Of a stretch of DNA of 64,000 bases, positions 3,221-8,765 are shown in pieces. The stretch comes from a virus (taxonomy: Duplodnaviria > Caudoviricetes). The stretch covers positions 224,001-288,000 of IMG/VR virus record IMGVR_UViG_3300028048_000038, one strand, 5' to 3'. Each line of letters opens with the position of its first letter. Within the stretch, counting starts at the first letter, position 1. The notes under the pieces are model-generated. The model ran no database searches. It saw only the letters and a program-made list of their open reading frames with translations, and was not told where the DNA came from. The translations under genes and the position numbers were made by a program.

Positions 3221-4135
3221 TTAATGTCTTTTAATTTCATTTATTAATAAATCTTTATTTGTATATACGCCATCATATTCAAATGTTGAATAATATAGTA
3301 AGAAGATGTTATTTTTCTCACATAGGATTTTTTTCTTTTTATCTCTTTCAATTCTTTTTTCAAGTCCTCTCTCCCCACCAAAAAAATCGACAACCTCAAA
3401 ATGTTGTATACCTTGGCACTCTATTGCTGCGTTATATTCTGGCAGATAAAAATCCAAGTGTTGTTGTCCTAGCCAATCAAATGTTTTTTTGTGAATATAA
3501 TTAATGCTAAGTTTATCCAAAAATACTCTAATTTCTTTTTCCAAACTACTCTCTGAACAAATTGGGCAACCACATCCTCTCAAATGGTGATGTGGTGTTT
3601 GTAAAAACTCTCCGTGTTTAGGACAAATAATACAAACATTTGTATCTCTATTAATGTATTTTACTTTTGAATAATCATACTTATTGTCATGGATTTTTAT
3701 AGCCTCTGCAATGAAATTTTCTTTTGTTTTTCTTTGCTTATTGTGGCTTGAAATCTGTCCGCATTTTTTACATCCATGACCATTTAGTAAATGATATGGC
3801 TTAATCTCAAATTTTCCATGAATAGGACAAATCAATTTAATCTTTGTATGCATACCAATATAATTCACTAAAGAGTAATCATATTGTGGAAAAATTGTTT
3901 TGGCTTTTTCAATAAAATGTTCTTGAGAAATAAGTTTCTTTTTACTCCTAGTCTCTATTCCACATTTTCCGCACATATGTCCACTTAGAAAATCGTTTGG
4001 TCTTATCCAAAACTCTCCGTGTTTTGGGCATATAATACATACTTTAGTTTTATTGTCTTTATATTCAACTTTTGAATAATCGTATTCTTTGTCTTGAACT
4101 AATTTGGCTTTAACAATGAATTCCTCTTTAGTCAT
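3221..4135 (-). CDS. Free-standing homing endonuclease: 3 CPxHG/CxxC zinc repeats (DUF723-like) plus Vsr/PD-(D/E)XK-like C-terminal nuclease
   Basis: Repeats YDYSKVxY...KVCIICPKHGEF...HLxGxGCxxC; C-terminal DFYLPEYNAAIECQGIQH; AT-richer than neighbours; sits between the gp25 and gp6 genes. Confidence 0.75.
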   Translation of the reverse strand: MTKEEFIVKAKLVQDKEYDYSKVEYKDNKTKVCIICPKHGEFWIRPNDFLSGHMCGKCGIETRSKKKLISQEHFIEKAKTIFPQYDYSLVNYIGMHTKIKLICPIHGKFEIKPYHLLNGHGCKKCGQISSHNKQRKTKENFIAEAIKIHDNKYDYSKVKYINRDTNVCIICPKHGEFLQTPHHHLRGCGCPICSESSLEKEIRVFLDKLSINYIHKKTFDWLGQQHLDFYLPEYNAAIECQGIQHFEVVDFFGGERGLEKRIERDKKKKILCEKNNIFLLYYSTFEYDGVYTNKDLLINEIKRH

Positions 4136-4524
4136 TATACTCGTACTACTATACTATCATTAGTTGTTTTATTTCCTTCTGAAACACTGTAATCCAATCT
4201 TACATATATCTCAGCTTCATCCTCTTCATTCTTAACCACTTGTATATTGTTAAGAGTTATGTCCCTAGACCATCTTCTTACAGATTCACTAACCTCATTT
4301 TTAACAGCTTCCCAAGTGATATTCTCATTTGGGTCGAATATGAACTTAATGAGGTCTGTTCCAAACTCTGGATTTCTGATTCTTTGTCCCTTTGGTGTAA
4401 AGACAATATGCATCAGCTCACTTCTAGCCTTGTCTTTAGTGCTACCATTGGCGTTGACAAAAAAATGTTGAAACCCATCACTGCGAAATGGATATGTTAT
4501 GCCAAAGTATTGTTTCTTGTTCAT
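4135..4524 (-). CDS. Baseplate protein, gp25/GPW family
   Basis: TPKGQRIRNPEFGTDLIKFIFDP is a typical gp25 motif. Confidence 0.9.
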   Translation of the reverse strand: MNKKQYFGITYPFRSDGFQHFFVNANGSTKDKARSELMHIVFTPKGQRIRNPEFGTDLIKFIFDPNENITWEAVKNEVSESVRRWSRDITLNNIQVVKNEEDEAEIYVRLDYSVSEGNKTTNDSIVVRV

Positions 4525-4611: not shown

Positions 4612-5238
4612 CTATTCTATAATTGTCCATATTTCTGTGAAATAATTGAAATCATCATATTCTAGAAGAACATATCCACTCTCCCCAAAATTCTTACCCC
4701 AAGAATTCCTTATGATGAATCCCTTGTCATTATAGCCTACAATTGAGATGGCATGCCCACCTTGGAATTCTGAATAATCATTCTTCTTCCAAAATTGCCA
4801 TTTCCTATCGTCATATACTAGCAATCCACCAACACATGGGCCATTCATTATCAAAGCTTGTTTTAATGCCAATTCAGAAGGAATCTTAGCGTATCTGTTT
4901 ATCTTGTATATACCACTTTCGGTTTTAACGCCTTCATGTCTCAAGAAATAAAAAGCATCCTTAAACGACATCCCATCATTACTCTCGTTGGTTCTGTTAT
5001 TGAATATCTGCATAAGGTCAACCTTATTATCACGATGGTTGTCACCGTCTGATAGGTTCTTATTCCAATTTATATAGGCTGAAACTGAGCAAGGAACACA
5101 TATCGGCTTCTGACCTTGATTAATCACGTCAGGGAGAAACTTCTTATATGAATATTCCTTTGGTATATCAAAATCCTTAAACTCATTAAATTCTTGTTCA
5201 CTACCATCTATCTTAGATGCTACAAATCCATAATTCAT
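4612..5238 (-). CDS. Papain-like (C1) cysteine peptidase
   Basis: NQG...ICVPC (Gln, Cys), GGHAISIVGY (His), IRNSWG (Asn). Confidence 0.9.
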   Translation of the reverse strand: MNYGFVASKIDGSEQEFNEFKDFDIPKEYSYKKFLPDVINQGQKPICVPCSVSAYINWNKNLSDGDNHRDNKVDLMQIFNNRTNESNDGMSFKDAFYFLRHEGVKTESGIYKINRYAKIPSELALKQALIMNGPCVGGLLVYDDRKWQFWKKNDYSEFQGGHAISIVGYNDKGFIIRNSWGKNFGESGYVLLEYDDFNYFTEIWTIIE

Positions 5239-5240
5239 AC

Positions 5241-5576
5241 TTACTCAACAATTATTCTTTTAATTATTTTTACACTATCATCCATAGTATCTTCTGCCCT
5301 ATATACAGACTCAGTAAGACTATCCCTCTTCATGTACATGAATAATGAAACCCTTTGATTAGACTCATATTCCTTAAGTCCAAGGAATTTCCAATCAGAC
5401 AACTTCCTTGGCAAAGTGTCTGCAATACACAGAGAATCAAACTGCTGCATTGAAAATTTCTTATTTATAGAATTTAACATTGTATTTCCAACATTCTCTT
5501 CTCCACCATTAGTAGTTATCTTATAAGAGCACCCTAGAATGGTAAACGCAAATAAAAGATAAAGTATTTTTCTCAT
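5241..5576 (-). CDS. Putative lipoprotein
   Basis: Signal peptide with lipobox MRKILYLLFAFTILG-C. Confidence 0.7.
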   Translation of the reverse strand: MRKILYLLFAFTILGCSYKITTNGGEENVGNTMLNSINKKFSMQQFDSLCIADTLPRKLSDWKFLGLKEYESNQRVSLFMYMKRDSLTESVYRAEDTMDDSVKIIKRIIVE

Positions 5577-5607
5577 AGTTCTTTTTACTATAAATATAAA
5601 AAGGTGA

Positions 5608-6102
5608 CTATTTAGCCACCTTTTTCTTACAAAATAACTTCGTTATATCTTCGAAATCAATTTTTAAAACACCATCCTCTAATTTATTATGCACTAACTT
5701 AAACAGTTTCTGATTCGTAGTTTCTTTATCCAAACCGCCTAAACTTTCGTCATAATGTCCTATCTTGATATAATCAAACCATTTAAAATTTATGTTTTTA
5801 TAGAAATTATCCATTCCACTATACCAACCAACCTTAAGTTCTCTTATCTCGTGAACATATTCTGCCAAAGTGTTTATTGCTTCTGGAGTAGCATCACCTC
5901 CCATAAAACATACTGTTGTGATACCATCGTTCTTGTCAATCAGTCTATTTAACTCATCTATCGTAAGTTCTGTACCTACATCTTCCCAAAGGAACTTTGA
6001 ATGACAACCCTTACAGTGACACGGACAATTCGTTATGTTAATCGCCAACGTTATTTCATTCGGTATTTCCTCGAATACCACCATTGCATTATAATACTTC
6101 AT
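5608..6102 (-). CDS. nrdG: Anaerobic ribonucleotide reductase activating radical-SAM protein
   Basis: CPCHCKGC (CxxxCxxC), VCFMGG, DYIKIGHY...TTNQ; start placed at the TAATG overlap at 6102. Confidence 0.9.
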   Translation of the reverse strand: MKYYNAMVVFEEIPNEITLAINITNCPCHCKGCHSKFLWEDVGTELTIDELNRLIDKNDGITTVCFMGGDATPEAINTLAEYVHEIRELKVGWYSGMDNFYKNINFKWFDYIKIGHYDESLGGLDKETTNQKLFKLVHNKLEDGVLKIDFEDITKLFCKKKVAK

Positions 6103-6335
6103 TATCTCTTCGTTATATAATCCCAATTAGAATCTTTAATATAAAGTCCACATTCACATTTATTTCTCATTGTGTAATCAGTGCAAGGACAGTGCAAATC
6201 TTTGCCCTCATAGTCCTCAGAATCGTGTATACAAGGACATATACCCTCACATTTCTCACACCTCTTAAGAATTGCATTCACAACCTTATCATTTGGGTTA
6301 AGAACCCAGCCTTCTTTCCTATATATTTGTATCAT
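6102..6335 (-). CDS. Ferredoxin:thioredoxin reductase catalytic-subunit-like Fe-S protein
   Basis: LNP...CPC-x13-CPC-x8-CECGLY matches the FTR/FDR CPC...CPC...CxC signature; start moved to ATG 6335 because the ORF extension overlaps a hairpin. Confidence 0.8.
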   Translation of the reverse strand: MIQIYRKEGWVLNPNDKVVNAILKRCEKCEGICPCIHDSEDYEGKDLHCPCTDYTMRNKCECGLYIKDSNWDYITKR

Positions 6336-6356
6336 ATCAATTGTCTTTAGATTAAA

Positions 6357-6388
6357 ATTGGGTACTGCGAGAGTACCCAATCTTTTTT
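6357..6388 (-). terminator. Hairpin/terminator directly after nrdD
   Basis: ATTGGGTACT-gcgag-AGTACCCAAT with T/A tracts on both sides. Confidence 0.6.
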
Positions 6389-8580
6389 TATTCTTCATTA
6401 TAATGTCTCATATGTTCTTCTACTTGTCTTGCTTCGTTGAAAGAGCTTACACGTTTCAAGTAGCCGATAATTCTAGTTAAGTAGTCAACGTTATGGCTTC
6501 CACACTTAGGGCAAACCTCAAGGGTATCCTTGCTTATGTATCCACAATCGTTACATACTGTGTTCTTACAGTTGAATGTGAAGTAACTACAGCCATATTC
6601 TGAAGCGACTCTTAGCAACTGTCTGTACTGGTCAAATGAAAGATGCTCATTGATGTTCAAGTGTGCTGCTTGTCCTCCATCAAGATACTTCACATAGTTG
6701 TTGCCATGTAGCTTCATCTTATCAAGGATTGAAAGCTCTGTATCCTCTGGATTGAAGAAATAGCTACTGTACATCACGTGCTTTGGTGATACGTAGTATC
6801 CATCTTTCTTATCCCAATTATAGTTCTTGTTTGAAAGGTTCTCACCTGGAACGAACTCAGTATTGTACATACAATCTCTTGTCTTATCTTTCTTGTTAGA
6901 AATGTTGATAGTCTCAAGAATTAAGTTTACAAACTCCTCATACTTGTCGTTAAGGTTTGTGTCAATTGACAAGAACTCTGCTGCATCTGTAAGACCATTC
7001 ACACCGATGGTTAGATACTGTTTCTTCATGTTGATGAATCCAGCTCTATAGATGTCAAGCATATTAGCGTTAAGGAAGTCCTTAATAATCTCATTGAATG
7101 CTCTCTGGTACTTGTGTACCCTCTCGGTCATATTAGTGATACCGTTTGAGATATATTGATAAAGTAGTTTCTTATCCTTTACCTTGTCAATATCCACTTG
7201 TTGACCTTCTTTAAGGATGATTCCTTCGTATTCCTCGAAATATTCTCTTGTGGCATTCTGTATTACACGGTTAAGGTTAATTGTCATAACTGACTTAGAA
7301 CCAGTTGCAACAGATGCTGTACCCATTGAGAATTGGTGTGTTGTGTGGTTGTGTTCATCGTCTTCTCCGTCCTTAAGAGAGTTTCTGAGTCTGCAACAAG
7401 AACTCAAAGAGTCTGGTGAGTCACTCAAATAGCAGAAGAATGAATGTCCCTCAGACCACATTTCTGCTGTAAAATCGGCATATTCCTTGTCAACAACGTC
7501 ATGTCCATCAGTAAGCATGGCCATTGTCTCTACTGGGAATGTTAATACATATTTGGTTCTTTCCTCATTGAACCACTTCATGAATTTCTTCTGAAGCCAA
7601 GATAGTGTTTCCCACTTTGGTGCTGTTCCATCAGGGAACTTGAACTCTCCAAATACTCCATCGAAATAGTTTTTATCAAAATAGCCAACGTTCCAGAATA
7701 CGGTTTGGTATCCTCTGTTACCAGCTGGCATATTCATAGAGTGTACTACTTGTTGGAATGCATTCTCTATTACTTGTTCAAGTGTTCTACCCTTCTTGTT
7801 TAGCTCAACTTGCTTATCAAGTATTGTGAGATAATCATCGCCATAATCCTTTCTTATAAAGTAGTCCATATACATAAGGAACTCTGGGGTGGCAACTGCA
7901 CCCATGAATTGTGAAGATACTGAATAAACGAGATTGATGAATTCACCACAATATGATTTAAGGTCTGTTGGTGCTTTAGATTGTCCTCCAATTTTAGTTA
8001 AACCATCGATGAGGAATGGATACATTGTGATTGCAACGCAATATGGGTATCCTGGTGTTCCACTTTCATCGTGTTTGTACAATACATGTGATTCGAGGTC
8101 TTTAATGTATTGGTCTGCAAGCTTCTTAGTGTACAATACTTTGATTTTATTCTGCATAATGTACCTATTCTGCATGATGTTCTTTCCCTTATGTAACTCT
8201 TGACCCAACGTTACAACGTTCTTATTCTCAACGTTTGCGTTGGAATCGTACTTAGAACCTGTTGATGCATTTGAAGCGTTAATGTAATCCTTTATGAAGT
8301 CGCTATCCTTTTTAAGAGTACTGCTCTTTCCTTCCTTTTCCTCATACTTCTTTATATACTCTCTAGCTACCTTCTTATTTACAGACATAAGGGCTTCCTC
8401 TACTTGTCTTCGTATCTCATTAGAAGATATTTTATCGTAGATAAACAAGTTTCTAATTAAAGACTCAATCAATCCATCAGGACATACTTCACCAGTTGCT
8501 GCATACGCTTCACAGATTCCATGTTTCACCTTCGAAGGGGCATATTCTTCGAAGGAACTATCGCTCTTTCTTACTTCCAT
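6388..8580 (-). CDS. nrdD: Class III (anaerobic) ribonucleoside-triphosphate reductase with ATP cone
   Basis: ATP-cone-like N-terminus, YPYC, SSCCRL finger loop, CxxC...CPKCGS zinc site, glycyl-radical RIIGYL. Confidence 0.95.
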   Translation of the reverse strand: MEVRKSDSSFEEYAPSKVKHGICEAYAATGEVCPDGLIESLIRNLFIYDKISSNEIRRQVEEALMSVNKKVAREYIKKYEEKEGKSSTLKKDSDFIKDYINASNASTGSKYDSNANVENKNVVTLGQELHKGKNIMQNRYIMQNKIKVLYTKKLADQYIKDLESHVLYKHDESGTPGYPYCVAITMYPFLIDGLTKIGGQSKAPTDLKSYCGEFINLVYSVSSQFMGAVATPEFLMYMDYFIRKDYGDDYLTILDKQVELNKKGRTLEQVIENAFQQVVHSMNMPAGNRGYQTVFWNVGYFDKNYFDGVFGEFKFPDGTAPKWETLSWLQKKFMKWFNEERTKYVLTFPVETMAMLTDGHDVVDKEYADFTAEMWSEGHSFFCYLSDSPDSLSSCCRLRNSLKDGEDDEHNHTTHQFSMGTASVATGSKSVMTINLNRVIQNATREYFEEYEGIILKEGQQVDIDKVKDKKLLYQYISNGITNMTERVHKYQRAFNEIIKDFLNANMLDIYRAGFINMKKQYLTIGVNGLTDAAEFLSIDTNLNDKYEEFVNLILETINISNKKDKTRDCMYNTEFVPGENLSNKNYNWDKKDGYYVSPKHVMYSSYFFNPEDTELSILDKMKLHGNNYVKYLDGGQAAHLNINEHLSFDQYRQLLRVASEYGCSYFTFNCKNTVCNDCGYISKDTLEVCPKCGSHNVDYLTRIIGYLKRVSSFNEARQVEEHMRHYNEE

Positions 8581-8765
8581 TAAAGCAAAACTTTATTTGT
8601 TCATTAATTTATTATTTTCGATTCGGTTAACCATTAATTTTACATCTGATGTTAAAATAAATATGGAATTAAATCACAAAAAAAACATCAAAAATTAAAA
8701 AAATTGGTCATCAAAATTGCAACTATCTGATAACCAACTTATACTAAAATGAAAAAATTTTTTTT

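Follow-up and report, generated by a model that had tools for sequence, protein, structure and literature searches.

How does a phage that carries its own anaerobic ribonucleotide reductase (RNR) keep that enzyme supplied with reducing equivalents? The question is raised by an operon in a 64,000-nucleotide stretch of viral DNA, referred to below as the window, which corresponds to positions 224,001-288,000 of the 409,537-bp virus record IMGVR_UViG_3300028048_000038, a record with inverted terminal repeats. In this operon the genes for a class III RNR (nrdD) and for its activase (nrdG) enclose a small gene whose 77-residue product, here called mini-FTR, resembles the catalytic chain of ferredoxin:thioredoxin reductase (FTR) and the related ferredoxin:disulfide reductase (FDR). 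The source is a cattle-gut phage of 409.5 kb, probably with Bacteroidales as its host; its DNA recurs in bovine-gut metagenomes from 13 studies. Here we propose that electrons most likely run from host ferredoxin to mini-FTR, from there to a phage thioredoxin and finally to NrdD, rather than coming from formate, a reading of the sequence comparisons that we hold with slightly more belief than doubt.

Mini-FTR contains three cysteine pairs, C33-P-C35, C49-P-C51 and C60-E-C62, and its stop codon TAA (6104-6102) overlaps the nrdG start ATG (6102-6100) as TAATG. An earlier note on this DNA, which described a CPC...CPC...CEC protein of 77 residues between nrdD and nrdG and translationally coupled to the latter, was therefore right in coordinates, overlap and motifs. 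A mechanical open reading frame (ORF) of 98 codons (6102-6398), overlapping the end of nrdD, was rejected in favour of the 77-residue reading because most homologues begin at the methionine of an MIxI motif. All six cysteines align with those of the FTR chain 1DJ7 (C55/C57, C74/C76 and C85/C87, in the same order) and are invariant or nearly so across 32-34 homologues; C33, C49, C51 and C60 are the predicted cluster ligands, and C35 and C62 the predicted redox-active pair. Searched against the PDB with phmmer, mini-FTR matched FTR catalytic chains only (E 0.003), and a profile built from 32 homologues matched FTR/FDR chains only (E 3.8e-6). The FTR catalytic family PF02943 was matched individually by 24 of the 32 family members, at best with 8e-8, and several homologues are named "ferredoxin-thioredoxin reductase catalytic subunit" by the Joint Genome Institute. 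The fold ranking points the same way: in an exhaustive VIA-align comparison with 48,161 chains, only four reached Z ≥ 2, and the first three were the FTR/FDR chains 1DJ7, 7PWE and 4TPU (Z 4.8, 4.2 and 4.0, the best match spanning 71 residues; the next chain scored 2.0). The chain 4TPU is the FDR of Methanosarcina acetivorans, which its depositors named "Rubredoxin".

Judged by family profile, cysteine pattern and fold ranking, the protein probably belongs to the FTR-catalytic/FDR family, of which it appears to be a minimal, single-subunit member that is predicted to bind a [4Fe-4S] cluster. With the cyanobacterial and chloroplast FTR catalytic chains (PF02943; 1DJ7, 2PU9, 7C3F) it shares the CPC...CPC...CxC arrangement and the 9-residue spacing of the last two pairs; it differs in being about 40 residues shorter, in a shorter loop between the first two pairs, and in its setting, a non-photosynthetic anaerobe. 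The FTR variable chain (PF02941) has no match in the 409-kb phage genome, which carries a single mini-FTR copy. The family as a whole is large (639 representatives at 50% identity, E ≤ 0.001) and consists mostly of proteins of 55-130 residues. Some relatives of about 185 residues have a C-terminal FTR domain, and we rejected the idea that these are redoxin fusions, no thioredoxin or glutaredoxin domain having been found in their N-terminal parts; in another, P0093, FTR and HNH/NUMOD appear to have been joined by the gene call, the second part being a homing endonuclease.

The kind of reductant required is indicated by NrdD itself. Its 730 residues match PF13597 (2.9e-89), an N-terminal ATP-cone (PF03477) and TIGR02827 (762 bits, cut-off 568), and they contain Tyr180-Cys181, S394-C395-C396-R397 within SSCCRL, Glu575, the glycyl-radical site RIIG706Y and a Zn ribbon formed by C676/C679/C690/C693 (CNDC and CPKC). 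The best solved relative in a PDB search is the NrdD of Thermotoga maritima (4COI/4U3E, E 5e-65), in which SSCCRL aligns with ASCCRL (328-SCCR-331), Y180-C181 with Y124-C125, and E575 (in NTEFVPGE) with the Glu of FNIEQVPAE. We take E575 to correspond to E438 of the Neisseria bacilliformis enzyme and E495 of the T. maritima enzyme. The adjacent cysteines that the earlier note had seen in place of MGCR are thus confirmed in the alignment with T. maritima. In the RNRdb2 analysis SCCR is confined to the subclass NrdDh, whose member NrdDh3 from N. bacilliformis uses thioredoxin, and the NrdD2 subtype of Wei and colleagues is defined by a third Cys together with an active-site Glu (PMC4493059; for thioredoxin use also PMC4390871). 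Because the SCCR loop (C395/C396), C181 and E575 are all present, we classify the phage NrdD by sequence as a class III enzyme of the thiol-dependent kind, called NrdD2 by Wei et al. and NrdDh in RNRdb2, a placement that would make it independent of formate.

The cellular NrdDs compared look different. The formate-type NrdD of Prevotella copri (8P23) matches the phage protein only in its C-terminal part, with Leu where the phage protein has Glu, and the chromosomal NrdDs of two metagenome-assembled genomes (MAGs) of Bacteroidales/Prevotellaceae read ATMGCRTR and SVLATPAE, that is, MGCR and Leu, the sequence pattern of the formate type. If such hosts are infected, the phage NrdD would be no duplicate of the host enzyme, since it would bring a different reductant requirement with it. 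In several other FTR-bearing phages (G001, G003, G019, G022 and G028) the NrdD is split or enlarged, with open frames of 948-1067 residues that match in pieces, likely through inteins or inserts; G019 in addition has an in-frame TGA/TAG inside the NrdD match, so that the gene may be broken or a stop codon recoded.

A thiol-dependent NrdD would need a dithiol protein, and the phage encodes a candidate. The earlier note saw no thioredoxin or NrdH gene in the window, and profile searches with PF00085 and PF00462 likewise found nothing within that span of the genome; it went on to call for a host redoxin or direct reduction. A redoxin is available, however, in a phage thioredoxin encoded about 157 kb from the operon, at 388.5 kb. 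This protein of 100 residues carries WCVPC, matches PF00085 with 45 bits (PF00462 with only 15 bits, below the cut-off) and is the sole thioredoxin found in the genome. Its gene directly follows an ORF for a UvrD/PcrA-like helicase and precedes an ORF of 286 codons. Searches of the whole genome returned no ferredoxin (PF00037), no flavodoxin (PF00258), no flavoprotein of the thioredoxin reductase (TrxR) type (PF07992) and no class I/II RNR (PF02867); with a single NrdD in the genome, the operon is the phage's only ribonucleotide reductase module.

The arrangement is not peculiar to one phage. Relatives of mini-FTR are encoded on 142 viral contigs, and nrdD and/or nrdG lies within 5 kb in 41 of the 106 FTR loci examined, a figure that, like most of the synteny counts, does not consist of independent cases, the loci of the window's own clade being close relatives. 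Within that clade (NrdD 88-98% identical) the order is always nrdD-FTR-nrdG, sometimes with 0.7-1.7 kb inserted; the insertion lies between nrdD and the mini-FTR gene (L010, L014, L018, L019, L025, L027, L029 and L030). The adjacency recurs in other gene orders beside NrdDs less than 45% identical to that of the window (L033, L035/L090, L091, L094, L104 and L114), all of which have CCR of the SCCR type and all but L094 the Glu pattern. When FTR sequences are clustered at 80% identity, the gene adjoins nrdD or nrdG in half of the clusters (9/18).

Eight related loci, representing seven distinct sequences because L028 and L031 do not differ in this region, have a thioredoxin gene (trx) in or near the operon. 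The order is nrdD-trx-FTR-nrdG in L007, L011, L036 and L037 and nrdD-FTR-trx-nrdG in L026, L028 and L031; in L056 trx lies within 5 kb, the gene order there being unresolved. In these thioredoxins the motif is WCGPC or WCMPC, and their identity to the distal thioredoxin of the phage studied here is 41-50%. Likewise, among 35 FTR-bearing records of crAss-like phages, a phage thioredoxin occurs in 9 of the 18 with NrdD and in none of the 17 without. In our view no other single observation argues as strongly as the in-operon thioredoxin for a joint action of FTR, thioredoxin and NrdD.

Based on these observations, we suggest the following route. Each turnover would leave an active-site disulfide in NrdD, between Cys181 and either Cys395 or Cys396, which a protein dithiol must re-reduce. 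Reduced host ferredoxin (e.g., from pyruvate:ferredoxin oxidoreductase) would donate electrons to mini-FTR, in which four cysteines would hold a [4Fe-4S] cluster beside the redox-active C35-C62 disulfide; mini-FTR would then reduce the phage thioredoxin, and thioredoxin the NrdD disulfide, while NrdG would install the glycyl radical on NrdD. A modelled complex of mini-FTR, 4Fe-4S and the phage thioredoxin scored 0.19 against a mark of 0.32, which speaks neither for nor against binding.

Several points, in addition to the relatedness of the loci, weigh against this chain. Some concern the protein. The earlier note had called it FTR-like, a description borne out by the family profile, the cysteines and the fold ranking, but the window's own sequence, taken alone, has no Pfam match at E ≤ 0.1, PF02943 included. 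Its AlphaFold2 model is only moderate (pLDDT 69.6), and the ten best Foldseek rows, all FTR/FDR, have E-values of 0.5-3.4 and are not significant. Glu61 occupies the position of the catalytically important His86 of FTR, the His of its CHC motif. The genome search for a ferredoxin or flavodoxin covered two families only, PF00037 and PF00258. Other points concern distribution. Among the FTR-bearing crAss-like records, NrdD is present in 18 of 35 and absent from 17 (16 of the 32 near-complete ones), and in crAss-like genomes the mini-FTR gene lies elsewhere, not at nrdD. GenBank holds 47 phage records with this NrdD type, of which 32 are without the FTR gene; its 49 phage records with the FTR gene all come from gut viromes or from phages of Bacteroides or Prevotella, and both genes occur together only in 15 Lak megaphages. 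A survey of nrdD-FTR-nrdG synteny, suggested earlier, thus gave a mixed answer: the linkage is recurrent, but mini-FTR is not an obligate partner of NrdD, because the family is also found in phages that have no NrdD at all. Cellular genomes seldom carry it: 185,579 species genomes gave 25 matches, mostly on Bacteroidales MAG contigs that are possibly phage.

These distributions bear most directly on the explanation that we rank second and consider rather unlikely, namely that mini-FTR is a general redox auxiliary gene whose product draws on the ferredoxin pool to reduce host thioredoxins or other disulfides. It would then serve thiol homeostasis, protection from oxidative stress or the activation of many targets, NrdD being one beneficiary and the position in the operon a convenience. 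Half of the FTR-bearing crAss-like genomes, without NrdD and thioredoxin, fit such a role, as does the distance of about 80 kb between FTR and NrdD in Lak phages. A published example is gp5 of Bacteroides phage crAss001 (NC_049977.1 2271-2468), a member of the same family from another Bacteroidales phage, 61% identical to mini-FTR over 67 residues. Unlike mini-FTR, it is 65 residues long, has CHC and lies in a tRNA array near a Dps-like gene, in a genome without NrdD and thioredoxin; its authors annotated it as a "putative ferredoxin-thioredoxin reductase" and as an auxiliary metabolic gene "unrelated with bacteriophage replication" (PMC6235969). In the crAss-like genomes cr112_1 and cr106_1 the gene is likewise inside a tRNA array, where it either lacks an annotation or lies under one for tRNA-Ser. 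Because the NrdDs of the two Bacteroidales/Prevotellaceae MAGs appear to be of the formate type, the target of FTR in phages lacking NrdD cannot be a thiol-type NrdD.

What speaks against a purely general role is that, in several diverged lineages, nrdD and nrdG enclose FTR, and that thioredoxin becomes part of this operon as well. The sequence of the last cysteine pair also divides the family. In three His-type clusters, which are crAss001-like, CHC is found in 48 of 48 members, and only L094 has nrdD within 5 kb; the forms that adjoin nrdD or nrdG are mostly CEC, CIC, CCC or CVC, some non-His clusters being without the linkage. This split between His and non-His forms may mark two sub-functions. 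A general auxiliary role is compatible with the chain through phage thioredoxin to NrdD, and it is probably the true one for CHC forms in phages without NrdD.

We consider it improbable that mini-FTR reduces the NrdD disulfide directly, as a ferredoxin:NrdD reductase for which thioredoxin would be dispensable. Most operons of the window's clade, including the present one, have no thioredoxin between nrdD and nrdG, and 9 of the 18 NrdD-positive crAss-like records have no phage thioredoxin, as this explanation would expect. Yet known FTR/FDR enzymes act on redoxins, as seen in the FTR-thioredoxin complexes 2PU9 and 7C3F and in the glutaredoxin-FDR fusion 7PWE, the phage retains a thioredoxin homologous to the in-operon ones, and host thioredoxins are available. 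More improbable still is that this small protein serves NrdG, giving single electrons to the radical S-adenosylmethionine (radical-SAM) cluster as flavodoxin does in Escherichia coli, or that it binds Zn and has a structural or regulatory role: the TAATG coupling to nrdG and the genome searches for a phage flavodoxin or ferredoxin (PF00258, PF00037), which found none, would suit it, but the coupling is broken in relatives with an intervening trx or the order nrdG-FTR, both cysteines of the redox-active disulfide and the four ligand cysteines are conserved family-wide, which a simple electron carrier or Zn finger would not need, and the cluster of FTR does not belong to the conventional one-electron carriers of low potential.

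The chain from ferredoxin through mini-FTR and thioredoxin to NrdD has partial counterparts in known systems. The NrdD of N. bacilliformis is reportedly reduced by thioredoxin (Wei et al. 2014, PNAS; PMC4493059), and like the T. maritima enzyme (NrdDh, NrdD2) it shares with the phage protein the SCCR motif, the bottom-face Tyr-Cys, the conserved Glu and a protein reductant in place of formate; there, however, thioredoxin is recharged by an NADPH-thioredoxin reductase, whereas the phage genome has no PF07992 match and has an FTR-like gene instead. The nearest parallel in logic is Methanosarcina barkeri, whose class III RNR is fed by FDR and NrdH (Wei et al. 2015, Biochemistry 54:7019, as cited in PMC9176816). 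There a reductase of the FTR family with a [4Fe-4S] cluster passes ferredoxin electrons via a small redoxin to an NrdD that does not use formate, as is proposed here for the phage; in both systems the genes are linked to the RNR operon, and the FDR structure 4TPU is one of only three fold matches of mini-FTR. The parts are different: M. barkeri has an NrdD3 (third Cys, no Glu) where the phage has Glu and the SCCR loop, an NrdH-like redoxin where phages have a thioredoxin (WCVPC/WCGPC), and an FDR of about 170 residues where the phage proteins have 65-77, and it is a cellular system, not a viral one. The M. barkeri comparison made earlier therefore holds as an analogy of design but not of component families. 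Phage T4 shares a phage-borne class III RNR and activase, but its NrdD (NrdD1), like others of its type, has MGCR and uses formate (PMC4493059), and no FTR-like gene is involved.

Within the limited set of literature covered, our searches found no paper linking FTR with phage and RNR. Annotations of the small-protein family itself in crAss001-like phages go back to 2018 but make no connection with RNR; new here are the phage thioredoxin and its in-operon homologues, the contrast with the formate-type NrdDs of MAGs, and the split between His and non-His forms. If the chain works as suggested, viruses would have a counterpart of the M. barkeri system, the one class III RNR for which ferredoxin as the driving reductant has been shown biochemically; being built from different parts (NrdD2/NrdDh, thioredoxin and a minimal FTR), this counterpart would widen the range of RNR reductant systems. 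The chain would give a concrete, testable function to the gene family of crAss001 gp5. Giant gut and rumen phages would then import an RNR whose reductant is unlike the one implied by the formate-type NrdDs of Bacteroidales MAGs, and host takeover in anaerobes would include choosing the electron source. For Fe-S-assisted disulfide reduction, an FTR of 65-77 residues would also offer an attractive model of minimal size. We further offer a broader conjecture, one that we doubt somewhat more than we believe: that these 65-77-residue proteins, having neither a variable subunit nor any additional domain, are the smallest self-sufficient ferredoxin:disulfide reductases known and, with the phage thioredoxin, form a complete virus-encoded chain from low-potential host ferredoxin to a thiol-type NrdD, bypassing formate and NADPH/TrxR, the non-His (CEC/CIC/CCC) forms being specialised for RNR and the CHC forms of crAss001-like phages serving otherwise.

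In the operon, nrdD is followed on the minus strand by a hairpin, the mini-FTR gene, nrdG and a terminator-like hairpin (Table 1). NrdG, the putative activase, scores just under the cut-off of TIGR02826 (1.1e-42; 145.4 bits against 151.7), matches PF13353 and phrog_626 and carries the CxxxCxxC radical-SAM motif (C-P-C-H-C-K-G-C); the position of its gene beside nrdD fits this assignment. The first hairpin occupies part of the 52 nt that separate nrdD from the mini-FTR gene; its core is GGGTAC/GTACCC, with UUUU after it. Its folding energy is -16.2 kcal/mol (z -3.7), none of 200 shuffled sequences folded as well, and it is unique in the window. At the same place it is present in 12 of 15 related loci examined, with varying loops, 4-6 T after it and compensatory changes in the flanking pairs (ATT/AAT to AAA/TTT or G/C). 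The hairpin that the earlier note had drawn to 6388 is thus real and conserved, although it ends at 6381. Lying 3' of nrdD, it probably reduces the share of transcripts that run on into the two accessory genes; that it acts as a partial terminator, giving more NrdD than accessory proteins, is plausible, a view we hold about as readily as its opposite.

Table 1. Coordinates of the operon features and of related genes outside the window (window positions unless another record is named).
Feature	Position	Strand	Support
nrdD, class III (glycyl-radical) ribonucleoside-triphosphate reductase, 730 aa	6388..8580	-	PF13597, PF03477, TIGR02827
Intergenic stem-loop, candidate partial terminator or attenuator	6357..6381	-	Terminator-like scan, folding, conservation
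Mini-FTR, 77 aa, homologue of FTR catalytic chain / ferredoxin:disulfide reductase	6102..6335	-	Family profile, cysteines, fold ranking
nrdG, radical-SAM activase of NrdD, 164 aa	5608..6102	-	TIGR02826 (just under cut-off), PF13353, phrog_626
Terminator-like hairpin, 12 pairs and T-rich tail, end of nrdG, closes operon	5598..5625	-	Terminator-like scan
Phage thioredoxin, outside window	G000:C1:388509-388799 (L003:1507-1809)		PF00085
Mini-FTR gene, cr112_1/cr106_1	L002:4001-4187 (NC_055881.1 64113-64298); NC_055871.1 23334-23528		

A bovine-gut metatranscriptome library contains contigs identical to the window over 6393-8717 (nrdD) and 5677-6113 (nrdG), and none over the mini-FTR gene and hairpin. 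These contigs are compatible with expression in the rumen, though the library may contain DNA; contigs of this kind cannot reveal transcript ends, and the coverage gap proves nothing and was taken neither as a sign of termination at the hairpin nor as one against expression of the mini-FTR gene.

Just downstream of the operon, on the same strand, lie a gene for a papain-family C1 cysteine peptidase (4612-5238; PF00112, 2e-11) and an ORF of 111 codons (5241-5576) whose product, judged by eye, is lipoprotein-like, with Cys after a hydrophobic segment at the N terminus (LGCSY). Such a pair is unusual for a phage replication or baseplate region. Further along (3221-4135, minus strand), a 304-residue protein contains the treble-clef zinc module CPxHG...C (DUF723/DUF4379) in three repeats; its gene is flanked by a gp25-like baseplate gene (4135-4524) and by a 662-codon ORF that is without a Pfam match and by eye resembles baseplate protein J. 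The zinc-module gene is possibly a homing-endonuclease-like insert.

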